From Aquimarina sp. 2201CG1-2-11 (GTDB taxonomy: Bacteria; Bacteroidota; Bacteroidia; Flavobacteriales; Flavobacteriaceae): a DNA stretch of 32,000 nucleotides. The notes beneath the pieces were generated by a model. That model ran no database searches. It saw only the letters and a list, made by a program, of their open reading frames with translations, and was not told where the DNA came from. Both the position numbers and the translations under genes were made by a program. The stretch spans positions 217,690 to 249,689 of the forward strand of contig NZ_JBFMKP010000001.1 in NCBI RefSeq assembly GCF_040786235.1, given 5' to 3'. Positions 23,112-26,183 of the stretch are shown piece after piece (positions within the stretch are counted from its first letter, which is position 1; each line of letters opens with the position of its first letter).

Positions 23112-24146
23112 ATGGTAGGATATTCAGCATTACAGGTAACAGCAGACCAAGCAAAAGAAATTGCACAGGAATTGTTTGGTATAGAAGGATGTGTAACGCC
23201 GCTTCCGGGTGAAATAGATTTCAATTTTAGGATTAAAGTATCCGATGAAGAAGGATACATCCTAAAAATATCGCGCCCAGATGAGGATGAGAACTATTTA
23301 GATTTTCAGCAAGAATTATTGCAATATGTAGAAGAAGGAGAGGTAAATATTATTGCTCCAAAGGTGATAAGAGATGTTCATGGCAGGACAGTTTCAGAAG
23401 TTGTAGATACCCATGGTAATAATAGAAAAGTAAGATTATTATCTTGGATTTCTGGTAGAGTATGGAGTAGTGTAAATCCTCAATTAGACGATTTAAGATT
23501 TAGTTTGGGTGAGCAATGTGGTCTGTTAACTAAAGCACTGTATGGATTTGATCACATGGAAGCCCATCGCCAGTTTGAATGGGATATTGCCCAGTGTTTA
23601 TGGACCGAAAAGCATATTCGCTTGTTTTCTCAAAAAGAGAAAAAAATGATATCTCATTTTCAAAGAAGATTTAAGGCAAAATTTGATTCTTATTCAGAAT
23701 TAAGAAAAGCTGTTGTACACAATGATGCAAATGATAACAATGTTATTGTATCTGATGATTTTTTAAACCCTGTTGTGAAAGCAGCAATAGATTATGGAGA
23801 TGCTATTCATACCCAGATTATTAATGATGTGGCAATTGCCTGCGCGTATGCTATTATGCATCATTTAGATCCGTTAGAGGCTGCTTTACCAGTGATTAAA
23901 GGATACAATGCTACTTTTCCTTTGCTGGAAGAAGAGTTGGATCATTTGTATAATGCAATTGCAATGCGTTTGGTAATATCGGTAACAAAGTCTGCACTTA
24001 ACAAAATAAAAGAACCGGGCAATGAATATTTATTAATAAGTGAGAGATCTGCTTTAGAAATACTTGAAAAATGGCGTGATATAAACGAAGATTACGCACT
24101 TTATAGTTTTAGAGAAGCATGTGGGTTTGTCGCTCATCCCCAAGAG
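23112..24146 (+). other. Domain 1 of the fusion: APH/homoserine-kinase-II-type small-molecule kinase (HYKK/AGPHD1-like)
   Basis: N-lobe [14 protein letters not shown]...[19 protein letters not shown]. Catalytic loop [13 protein letters not shown] (H203, D205, N210). Mg-binding IDYGDA. Confidence 0.7.
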
Positions 24147-26183
24147 GTAGCGTTTAAAGAATGGGCAAGTCATACTCATTTCAAGTTATCAGAACTTTTT
24201 CCAACCGTATATAAAAATGAAGTTCATCCTATAGACTTAAGTATCGCAAGTACCTGGATGGGACATCAGCAAGATGTAAATGATCTAGAGGTATTTCAAT
24301 TTAAAATTGGGCAGTTACAAAAACAAAATCCAGATAAGATTATAGCAGGAGGATATCTCGAATCTCGAGCACTCTATACAACAGCATCTTATAATAAGGT
24401 AGGCAATAATGGTAGAGAAAGTAGAAGTACTCATTTAGGAATAGACTTTTGGTTACCAGTAGGTACTTTTGTGCACTCACTGTTTGATGGTGAAATTGTT
24501 ATTTCTGTAAAAAAAGAGGGAGACAAAGAGTACGGAGGCTTAATTGTTTTAAAGCATAAAATCTATAACATAGAATTTTATACTTTATATGGGCATCTTA
24601 CTCTGGATTGCATAGAGAAAAAACAGGTAGGAGGTACCATAAAAAAAGGAGAATGTATTGGTAAATTAGGAGATTACCCAGAAAATGGAAATTGGCCTTC
24701 TCACTTACATTTTCAAATTTTACATTCGTTGTTAGATTACAAAGAAGACTTTCCTGGCGTAGCAAGCTTCAATCAAATCGGTGTATGGCAAAGTTTATGT
24801 CCTAACCCTAATTTATTATTTAAATTAGATGAGTTAGAAAAGAGAGAAGAGGTGCCTAATGAGGAACTAGTGTCTTTTCGAAAAAAGTACCTCGGAAAAA
24901 GTTTAAGCCTTCAATATAAAGAACCTATTAAGATGGTTCGTGGAAGCGGACAGTTTTTAATAGATCAATATGGTCAAAAATATCTTGATACCGTTAATAA
25001 CGTTGCGCATGTAGGCCATGAACATAGAGGAGTGGTAAGTGCGGGGCAAGAACAAATGGCACTGATTAATACTAATTCTCGTTATTTACATGAAAATATT
25101 AATGAGTTAGCCAAAGAGCTTTTAAAAACGTTACCAGCAGAGTTAAGTGTGGTACATTTTGTAAATTCGGGAAGTGAAGCGAATGAGTTGGCGTTAAGAA
25201 TGGTAAAAGCGTCTACCAAAGAAAAGGATATGATCGTATCAGAGATAGGATATCATGGTAATACCAATGCTTGTGTCGATATCAGTTCTTATAAATTTGA
25301 TGGTAAAGGAGGAGAAGGAGCTCCAGAACATACGCATGTTTTTCCTCTACCAGATTCATATAGGGGGAAGTATAGAGGAGAAAATACAGGGAAAAAATAT
25401 GCCAAAGAAGTACAAAAGCAAATAGAAAGGATACATGCCAAAGGAAGAGGTGTTGGTGCTTTGATTGTAGAACCTATCATAAGCTGTGGAGGTCAAATAG
25501 AGCTTCCTAATGGATTCTTGGCTCAAGCATATAAATATGTAAGAGAAGCAGGAGGACTTTGTGTTTCTGATGAGGTACAGGTGGGCTGCGGACGAGTGGG
25601 AAAAACTTTTTGGGGATTCCAATTACATAATGTAGTGCCCGATATTGTAACCATAGGTAAACCATTAGGAAATGGGCATCCGATTGCAGCAGTGGTTTGT
25701 ACACAGGATGTGGCAGATAAATTTGCTAATGGGATGGAGTATTTTAATACGTTTGGAGGAAACCCTGTTTCCTGCGCTATAGGCCTAGAAGTTTTAAGAA
25801 CCATAAAACGCGAAAAATTACAAGAAAATGCATTATTAGTAGGAGAGTTTCTAAAATGGGAATTGAATAAACTTTCCAAACAGTTTCCTATTATAGGAGA
25901 TGTAAGAGGAGAAGGGTTATTTCTTGGGTTTGAATTGGTCGATGAAGCAATGAATCCATTAGCTGATGAAGCAGATTATCTTGTGAACAGGATGAAAGAT
26001 CATGGAATTTTGATGAGTACAGATGGTCCGGATCACAATGTTTTAAAAATTAAGCCTCCTATTGTGTTTACAAAAGAAAATGCTGAAGAATTGATTTTTT
26101 ATCTACAAAAGGTTTTTGGTGAAAATATGATGACAAAACATCTGTTTAAGCTTCCTGATGCAACCAAAAAAATAACTCTTTAA
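23112..26183 (+). CDS. Trifunctional fusion: hydroxylysine-kinase-like phosphotransferase + M23 peptidase domain + AGXT2L-type class-III PLP enzyme (predicted phospho-lyase)
   Basis: 1023 aa in one uninterrupted ORF with no signal peptide. The ATG directly abuts the upstream TAA (TAAATG). Domain motifs are listed in the three sub-features below. Confidence 0.85.
24309..24746 (+). other. Domain 2 of the fusion: peptidase M23 (LytM-type) fold with an intact zinc-ligand pattern
   Basis: HxxxD motif as STHLGIDF (H441, D445). Beta-rich [13 protein letters not shown]...GGLIVLKH...YTLYGHL. HxH motif as PSHLHFQI (H531, H533). Confidence 0.7.
24864..26126 (+). other. Domain 3 of the fusion: class-III aminotransferase fold, AGXT2L (ETNPPL/PHYKPL)-like
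   Basis: [57 protein letters not shown] with the predicted PLP lysine K850 (codon at 25659). [18 protein letters not shown]. The DEVQVG.GRVGK.FW.FQ and GKP.GNGHP strings match what I recall of the vertebrate AGXT2L proteins. Confidence 0.8.

Follow-up and report, generated by a model that had tools for sequence, protein, structure and literature searches.

A single gene of Aquimarina sp. 2201CG1-2-11 encodes a fusion of a small-molecule kinase, an M23 metallopeptidase domain and a class-III pyridoxal-phosphate (PLP) enzyme, and its product is probably a cytoplasmic enzyme for the disposal of 5-hydroxy-L-lysine within an operon for the collagen glycoside glucosyl-galactosyl-hydroxylysine (Glc-Gal-Hyl). 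The gene lies in a stretch of 32,000 nucleotides (contig NZ_JBFMKP010000001.1, positions 217,690 to 249,689; here called the window), where it is the fourth gene of a tightly packed operon on the plus strand. The chemistry is known from vertebrates, and the new element is the gene context, which points to a specific substrate. The tri-domain protein and its parts are placed in the window as follows.

23112..26183, plus strand: tri-domain open reading frame of 1023 amino acids, a single ATG-to-stop frame (open reading frame listing and translation)
23112..24146, plus strand: domain 1, small-molecule kinase of the APH fold (Pfam APH, residues 28-255)
24429..24725, plus strand: domain 2, M23 metallopeptidase domain (Pfam Peptidase_M23, residues 440-538)
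24924..26114, plus strand: domain 3, class-III PLP fold assigned to the phospho-lyase (ETNPPL/PHYKPL) clade (Pfam Aminotran_3, residues 605-1001)

All three domains exceed their Pfam gathering scores, in agreement with an original prediction made from the nucleotide sequence, which had described one frame with APH, M23 and class-III PLP domains in this order; each motif string that it listed is found in the frame at the expected place. The NCBIfam model PRK06148, which spans the whole tri-domain protein under the name 'hypothetical protein', aligns residues 7-1006 with model positions 9-1012 and scores 1108.9 bits, just short of its cut-off of 1128. The identical three-domain Pfam architecture occurs in more than 120 protein clusters (~70% identity). 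A search with the kinase and M23 half returned 914 representatives (50% identity) at E<=1e-30, many of them ~1000 residues long with both domains aligned at 30-40% identity. Complete tri-domain homologues were found in 12 genome loci and 80 metagenome loci, the nearest genome locus being that of an uncultured Aquimarina (91% identity). The fusion is genuine, because its architecture recurs across these clusters, representatives and loci. Assembly error, which the original prediction had named as a possible source of the single frame, was rejected, since hundreds of clusters share the architecture. The fusion is not new, as it is already catalogued in NCBIfam as PRK06148 and PRK06149. Genes on alpha-proteobacterial megaplasmids have the same domain order, and Klebsiella and Azospirillum carry unfused kinase and lyase gene pairs from the same clades as the fused domains. 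Inspection of the N-terminus revealed no signal peptide, and the tri-domain protein is therefore taken to be cytoplasmic.

Domain 3 (E 2.7e-77, 260.6 bits against a cut-off of 30.5) contains the Schiff-base lysine K850 in a GKP motif, and this lysine is kept in 17/17 homologues; the two class-III PLP strings quoted in the original prediction sit at residues 820-837 and 847-857. Against all PDB sequences, the top match is human ethanolamine-phosphate phospho-lyase (ETNPPL, 6tor), at 447 bits and 49.8% identity over 426 residues, end to end, and the second is a bacterial phospholyase from Arthrobacter (5g4i, 309 bits), whereas matches to any PDB racemase, decarboxylase or transaminase reach at most 178 bits. 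The identity to ETNPPL is as high as that to the orthologue in Sinorhizobium meliloti. By sequence comparison, domain 3 falls in the phospho-lyase clade, apart from the transaminases, which upholds the earlier view that it is closer to the AGXT2L phospho-lyases; it does not group with ordinary omega-transaminases, and its best solved relatives are phospho-lyases. A true transaminase was rejected on the 270-bit gap to the best transaminase or racemase. PMC8154272, which cites Veiga-da-Cunha et al. 2012, names ETNPPL and 'a closely related enzyme' as the sole known lyases of the class-III group, and this citation agrees with what the original prediction had said of that work.

Domain 1 (E 1.3e-16, 61.5 bits against a cut-off of 23.2) carries the strings HNDANDNN at residues 203-210 and IDYGD at residues 226-230, which hold the kinase catalytic residues H203, D205 and N210 (HxDxxxxN) and D227 (DxGD). 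These motifs are invariant in all 17 homologues compared, the most distant of which is 30% identical. A structure model of the domain (pLDDT 74) has amicoumacin kinase, homoserine kinase II and the aminopropanol kinase 6ef6 as its nearest fold neighbours, with E values down to 3.8e-10. We predict that domain 1 is a hydroxylysine kinase, phosphorylation of 5-hydroxy-L-lysine being backed indirectly by gene context.

Domain 2 (E 5.3e-13, 49.4 bits against a cut-off of 28.7) contains HLGID at residues 441-445 and HLHFQ at residues 531-535. All five M23 catalytic and zinc residues are present (H441, D445, H495, H531 and H533), including the third catalytic histidine, H495 in LYGHL, which was absent from the original prediction, and sequence matches to M23 proteins in the PDB have E values of 1e-7 to 1e-3. 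Among 16 PRK06148-type homologues, down to 35% identity, the HxxxD and HxH motifs are retained in all 16 and the middle histidine in 14. A PRK06149-type paralogue of 976 residues on S. meliloti pSymB, in contrast, has lost all M23 catalytic residues while keeping the kinase and PLP motifs. Since the M23 site is kept in the homologues and lost in this paralogue, it appears to be under selection in the PRK06148-type lineage. M23 domains are usually extracytoplasmic, whereas this one lacks a signal peptide and is embedded between two cytoplasmic cofactor-dependent domains, a location that is unusual for the family. Our guess is that the domain might trim hydroxylysine-containing collagen peptides, for example Gly-X-Hyl, and this is the weakest step of the explanation. 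We consider it doubtful that marine Flavobacteriaceae possess a dedicated Glc-Gal-hydroxylysine locus in which an active cytoplasmic M23 domain excises hydroxylysine from collagen peptides for the domains on either side of it. A conserved, intact and cytoplasmic M23 site is a separate puzzle for peptidase specialists.

The S. meliloti paralogues on pSymB (locus L020) are convergent genes 1.2 kb apart, at 8968-12021 on the plus strand and 13220-16150 on the minus strand, with a gene for an amino-acid binding protein in the space that separates them. The M23 site is intact in one and fully degenerate in the other, and the pair forms a natural experiment on the purpose of the site. Just N-terminal to the M23 domain lies a GGY-x-E-x-R-x-x-Y motif (window 24348-24377, residues 413-422) that falls under no Pfam family. 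Its residues E417 and R419 are invariant in 17/17 homologues, including the paralogue with the lost M23 residues.

The remaining genes of the operon, and the divergent gene pair upstream of it, are listed below.

14337..15881, minus strand: SusD-family lipoprotein (Pfam SusD)
15898..19017, minus strand: SusC/RagA TonB-dependent transporter, divergent from the operon (TIGR04056, 823.9 bits)
19161..20159, plus strand: regulator with a GntR-type helix-turn-helix and a periplasmic-binding-protein fold, first gene of the operon (Pfam)
20174..21079, plus strand: aldose 1-epimerase (mutarotase), cytoplasmic, without signal peptide (Pfam)
21069..23111, plus strand: GH63 alpha-glucosidase of the YgjK type with a lipoprotein signal (…FCLGC) (Pfam and NCBIfam)
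26212..29355, plus strand: GH2 beta-galactosidase of the LacZ type with a lipoprotein signal (…VIGC) (NCBIfam beta_gal_Bga2A equivalog, 1007.8 bits, above the cut-off of 999; Pfam)
29288..30940, plus strand: SSF sodium:solute symporter (NCBIfam PRK10484 equivalog, 772.8 bits, above the cut-off of 401)
30946..32000, plus strand: galactokinase GalK, running off the end of the window (GRINLIGEHTDYN signature; 62% identity to Tenacibaculum GalK)

The TAA stop codon of the GH63 gene directly abuts the ATG of the tri-domain gene (a 0-nt junction), an arrangement by which the latter appears to be translationally coupled between GH63 and GH2. The GH63 protein has E. coli YgjK as its closest solved homologue (~260 bits), and its catalytic residues D458 (WESGMD) and E651 (IRENY) align with YgjK D501 and E727 of clan GH-G. 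Lipoprotein signal peptides are found on GH63, GH2 and SusD, and these signals are kept in orthologues. The SusC/SusD pair, the GH63 and GH2 enzymes and the GntR-type regulator together make up the gene set by which polysaccharide-utilisation loci are recognised, and the regulator is conserved in five other loci. The G+C content of the window is 29-39%.

Two details of gene layout were noted in this region. If the SSF gene began at its first ATG (29288), it would share 68 nt with the GH2 gene. Met25 corresponds to an ATG at 29360, 4 nt past the GH2 stop, and is the likelier start because orthologues are 528-548 residues long. A GH89 lipoprotein (NAGLU-type alpha-N-acetylglucosaminidase, window 11716-13935, minus strand), a type of enzyme directed at an animal-type glycan linkage, adjoins SusD, but it was left out of the system since it was not found beside the SusC/SusD pair in related loci.

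The position of the tri-domain gene between the two glycosidases extends well beyond Aquimarina. GH63 directly upstream and GH2 directly downstream were found in at least nine genera or groups, namely Aquimarina, Gelidibacter, Arenibacter, Tenacibaculum, Wocania, Flagellimonas, Winogradskyella, Lutibacter and unclassified Flavobacteriales. The GH63, tri-domain and GH2 core is constant, while the regulators (GntR, TPR-type, or extracytoplasmic-function sigma and anti-sigma factors) and the flanks vary; in Tenacibaculum and three other loci the operon also includes GalK and GalT. Unbiased clustering of 496 flanking reading frames from 101 loci returned, as the most recurrent neighbours, GH2 (23 loci), GH63 (15), the proline-racemase family (10) and DAO (8). 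Context was tallied over 35 loci of the close clade in which the gene has 2 kb or more of flank on each side. Glycosidases are adjacent in 16, hydroxyproline genes in 5 (one locus belonging to both groups) and L-piperideine-6-carboxylate dehydrogenase (P6CDH) in 2, giving 22/35 with at least one such context.

Several other neighbours recur around the gene. A block of M20 peptidase, BlaI, M56 (BlaR-like) and DUF4407 genes flanks it in L023 (13317-19600) and L025 (1-5397), two loci whose operon partners differ (HGLS and P6CDH in the former, GH63 and GH2 in the latter), and is also present in four metagenome loci; this points to a single chromosomal neighbourhood in which the partners have been exchanged. 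A small DUF4440 protein is encoded downstream in the operon in nine loci (L013 18993-19433, L039 3770-4207 and seven more), lying between GalK and GalT in Tenacibaculum. A large Met-zincin (DUF4953 and DUF5117) lies upstream on the same strand in L106 (4925-7660, plus strand) and in four other distant soil-type loci (~41% identity), and is a possible protease partner where glycosidases are missing.

Away from the glycosidases, the gene is found beside catabolic genes for other collagen-derived or lysine-related compounds. In at least eight loci, with tri-domain identities of 50-72%, it is convergent with a complete 4-hydroxyproline pathway comprising 4-hydroxyproline epimerase (equivalog, 562 bits, above 376), D-amino-acid dehydrogenase, a DapA-like protein and a 2,5-dioxovalerate-dehydrogenase-like protein. 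One of these loci combines a GH2-like gene upstream, the tri-domain gene and the hydroxyproline genes. The cluster consistently includes a gene for a DUF885 protein, placed between the epimerase and the aldehyde dehydrogenase (L056, 14269-16005, minus strand, and four other loci). In Flavivirga and Maribacter, a LysR gene is divergent from a row of HGLS, P6CDH (equivalog, 803 bits, above 730) and the tri-domain gene. Genes for a YdiJ-like D-2-hydroxyglutarate dehydrogenase and for a saccharopine dehydrogenase lie close by in Flavivirga, and a P6CDH homologue is present in one distant lineage. L-Piperideine-6-carboxylate is the cyclic form of 2-aminoadipate semialdehyde, and HGLS converts 2-oxoadipate to 2-hydroxyglutarate in the lysine catabolism of Pseudomonas. 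As judged from their annotations, the Flavivirga and Maribacter neighbours make up a route from the predicted product of the tri-domain enzyme to 2-oxoglutarate.

In proteobacteria, the partners are of a different kind. On alpha-proteobacterial megaplasmids the tri-domain gene is paired with Lrp/AsnC and an amino-acid binding protein. A Klebsiella pneumoniae IncFIB plasmid (L026, 3932-11237) carries a cassette flanked by insertion sequences that contains a Lys/Arg/Orn ABC transporter, a GntR regulator, an unfused kinase, a lyase-type PLP enzyme and EamA. Its kinase and lyase belong to the same clades as their tri-domain counterparts, and in all 26 Klebsiella plasmid records were matched by the search. 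By gene content, the cassette resembles a mobile unit for hydroxylysine-type catabolism, carried by a pathogen associated with humans. The original prediction had preferred 5-hydroxylysine as the substrate, and the GH63 and GH2, P6CDH and HGLS, 4-hydroxyproline and Lys/Arg/Orn-transporter contexts, as read from annotated genes, all speak for that preference.

The order of events that we propose is as follows. Firstly, in the periplasm, the exported GH63 alpha-glucosidase would strip the alpha1,2-linked glucose from Glc-Gal-hydroxylysine, and the exported GH2 beta-galactosidase would then strip the galactose, uncovering the hydroxyl group of hydroxylysine. The freed sugars would be taken up through the SSF symporter, a role and cargo that we assign tentatively, and metabolised by the mutarotase, GalK and the Leloir enzymes. 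Inside the cell, domain 1 would phosphorylate the 5-hydroxyl with a nucleoside triphosphate, and domain 3 would bind the adjacent 6-amino group and eliminate phosphate and then ammonia. Finally, the product, 2-aminoadipate semialdehyde, would enter lysine catabolism. We infer the sequence GH63, GH2, kinase and lyase because the hydroxyl targeted by the kinase is the one that bears the sugars. E. coli YgjK has been crystallised with Glc-alpha1,2-Gal (PDB 3W7W), and Glc-alpha1,2-Gal-beta1-5Hyl is known from the literature as the vertebrate collagen glycan unit.

A number of observations weigh against this proposal. The specificity of YgjK-type GH63 enzymes for Glc-Gal-Hyl is a prediction by analogy, what is known being the complex of YgjK with Glc-alpha1,2-Gal. 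The two glycosidases are exported lipoproteins and the tri-domain enzyme is cytoplasmic, and an inner-membrane transporter for hydroxylysine or peptides was not identifiable in the operon. The window contains no collagenase, and neither P6CDH nor HGLS. The closest solved lyase is a phosphoethanolamine enzyme rather than PHYKPL, which has no structure. Neighbours are uninformative in 13/35 of the well-flanked close-clade loci and in nearly all distant lineages (~41-44% identity), where they comprise TopA, DprA, a Met-zincin and an unannotated family. The counts are not independent events, as many loci in the sample belong to related Flavobacteriaceae.

The alternative that fares best keeps the chemistry and changes the substrate: another vicinal amino-alcohol, such as ethanolamine, (S)-1-amino-2-propanol, a hydroxylated diamine or a sphingoid-type base, would be the aglycone of some other Glc/Gal glycoside served by the operon. 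Human ETNPPL and the Arthrobacter enzyme 5g4i both act on phosphoethanolamine, and the kinase model resembles, among others, the mycobacterial aminopropanol kinase 6ef6. The specificities of vertebrate ETNPPL and PHYKPL, two close paralogues, cannot be told apart by sequence similarity; the split between the two probably post-dates the divergence from bacteria, and a tree may not settle which of the two branches domain 3 belongs to. However, genes for handling acetaldehyde or propionaldehyde, or for a microcompartment, occur in none of the loci examined. P6CDH with HGLS, the Lys/Arg/Orn transporter and the pairing of Lrp/AsnC with an amino-acid binding protein fit a lysine skeleton, and ethanolamine and aminopropanol are disfavoured because of these contexts. 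To our knowledge, the combination of Glc-alpha1,2-Gal-beta with an O-linked amino-alcohol occurs only in hydroxylysine. On balance, we regard a different amino-alcohol as unlikely.

A less probable explanation still, to which we give little weight, is that the operon is an ordinary alpha-glucoside and beta-galactoside locus, for instance for an algal or dietary oligosaccharide, in which the tri-domain gene is an unrelated inherited passenger. GH2, the mutarotase, the SSF symporter and GalK/GalT alone would indeed be taken for a galactoside operon, glucosylglycerate-type solutes are further substrates of GH63/MGH1-like enzymes (a weak GluglyHdase match of 77.6 bits was obtained), and most of the sampled loci come from Flavobacteriaceae. 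A passenger would not be expected to sit between GH63 and GH2 at a 0-nt junction, in a core that is kept in at least nine genera as regulators and flanks change, or, where glycosidases are absent, to adjoin other collagen and lysine catabolic genes rather than random ones.

Least probable is a reading of domain 3 as a true omega-aminotransferase that depends on an amino acceptor, with the kinase and M23 domains serving antibiotic modification or cell-wall peptide recycling: the database names ('aminotransferase class III-fold PLP-dependent enzyme' or 'peptidase M23') and the prevalence of transaminases among class-III members (PMC8154272) would suit it, but the bit-score gap and ~50% identity to ETNPPL across the domain, the constant fusion or adjacency with a small-molecule kinase, and a cytoplasmic protein with no cell-wall gene context speak against it.

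If an active M23 domain does excise hydroxylysine within a dedicated Glc-Gal-hydroxylysine locus, the bacterial tri-functional proteins would gain their first physiological role. The locus would also be the first of the SusC/SusD kind directed at a glycosylated amino acid instead of a polysaccharide, and an M23 peptidase would be put to metabolic use inside the cell. Collagen is more abundant than any other animal protein, and its Glc-Gal-hydroxylysine units withstand ordinary proteases; the gene contexts would also make the tri-domain gene a marker for collagen turnover by marine, animal-associated Bacteroidota. Sequences of kinase, M23 and lyase fusions have been on record since 2012 or earlier, annotated only as 'aminotransferase' or 'peptidase M23', and the contexts described here yield a directly testable four-enzyme pathway whose substrates can be purchased or easily prepared. 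In full-text literature and surveys of polysaccharide-utilisation loci, whose coverage is incomplete and yields absence of evidence only, no publication was found that links hydroxylysine, GH63 or the fusion to a bacterial utilisation locus, or that describes the recycling of Glc-Gal-hydroxylysine units by microbes.

The proposed system resembles several known ones and differs from each. The full-length PRK06148 model is co-linear with the Aquimarina protein, and the proteobacterial members of PRK06148 and PRK06149 (named 'hypothetical protein' and 'aminotransferase') lie near Lrp/AsnC and amino-acid binding proteins, not glycosidases. ETNPPL (6tor) and the Arthrobacter phospholyase (5g4i) share the PLP-lysine context of domain 3, but both are stand-alone enzymes of phosphoethanolamine without a fused kinase, whereas the gene context here argues for a substrate with a lysine skeleton. 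Mycobacteria pair an APH-fold amino-alcohol kinase, the aminopropanol kinase 6ef6, with a class-III PLP phospho-lyase in a microcompartment; these are separate, encapsulated proteins acting on 1-amino-2-propanol, without an M23 domain or glycosidase. The vertebrate enzyme PGGHG (GH65, EC 3.2.1.107) removes the alpha1,2-glucose from Glc-Gal-Hyl, which is the first step proposed here, although the bacterial enzyme belongs to GH63 and is an exported lipoprotein of a SusC/SusD locus. A parallel in two steps is provided by vertebrate hydroxylysine kinase (HYKK, AGPHD1) and 5-phosphohydroxy-L-lysine phospho-lyase (PHYKPL, AGXT2L2), for whose identification bacterial fusions of this type reportedly served as the clue in the 2012 work of Veiga-da-Cunha and colleagues. 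There too an APH-family kinase is followed by a class-III PLP enzyme that releases phosphate and ammonia to give 2-aminoadipate semialdehyde, but in Aquimarina the two activities would reside in a single chain on either side of an intact M23 domain, and the gene lies in a glycoside-utilisation operon.

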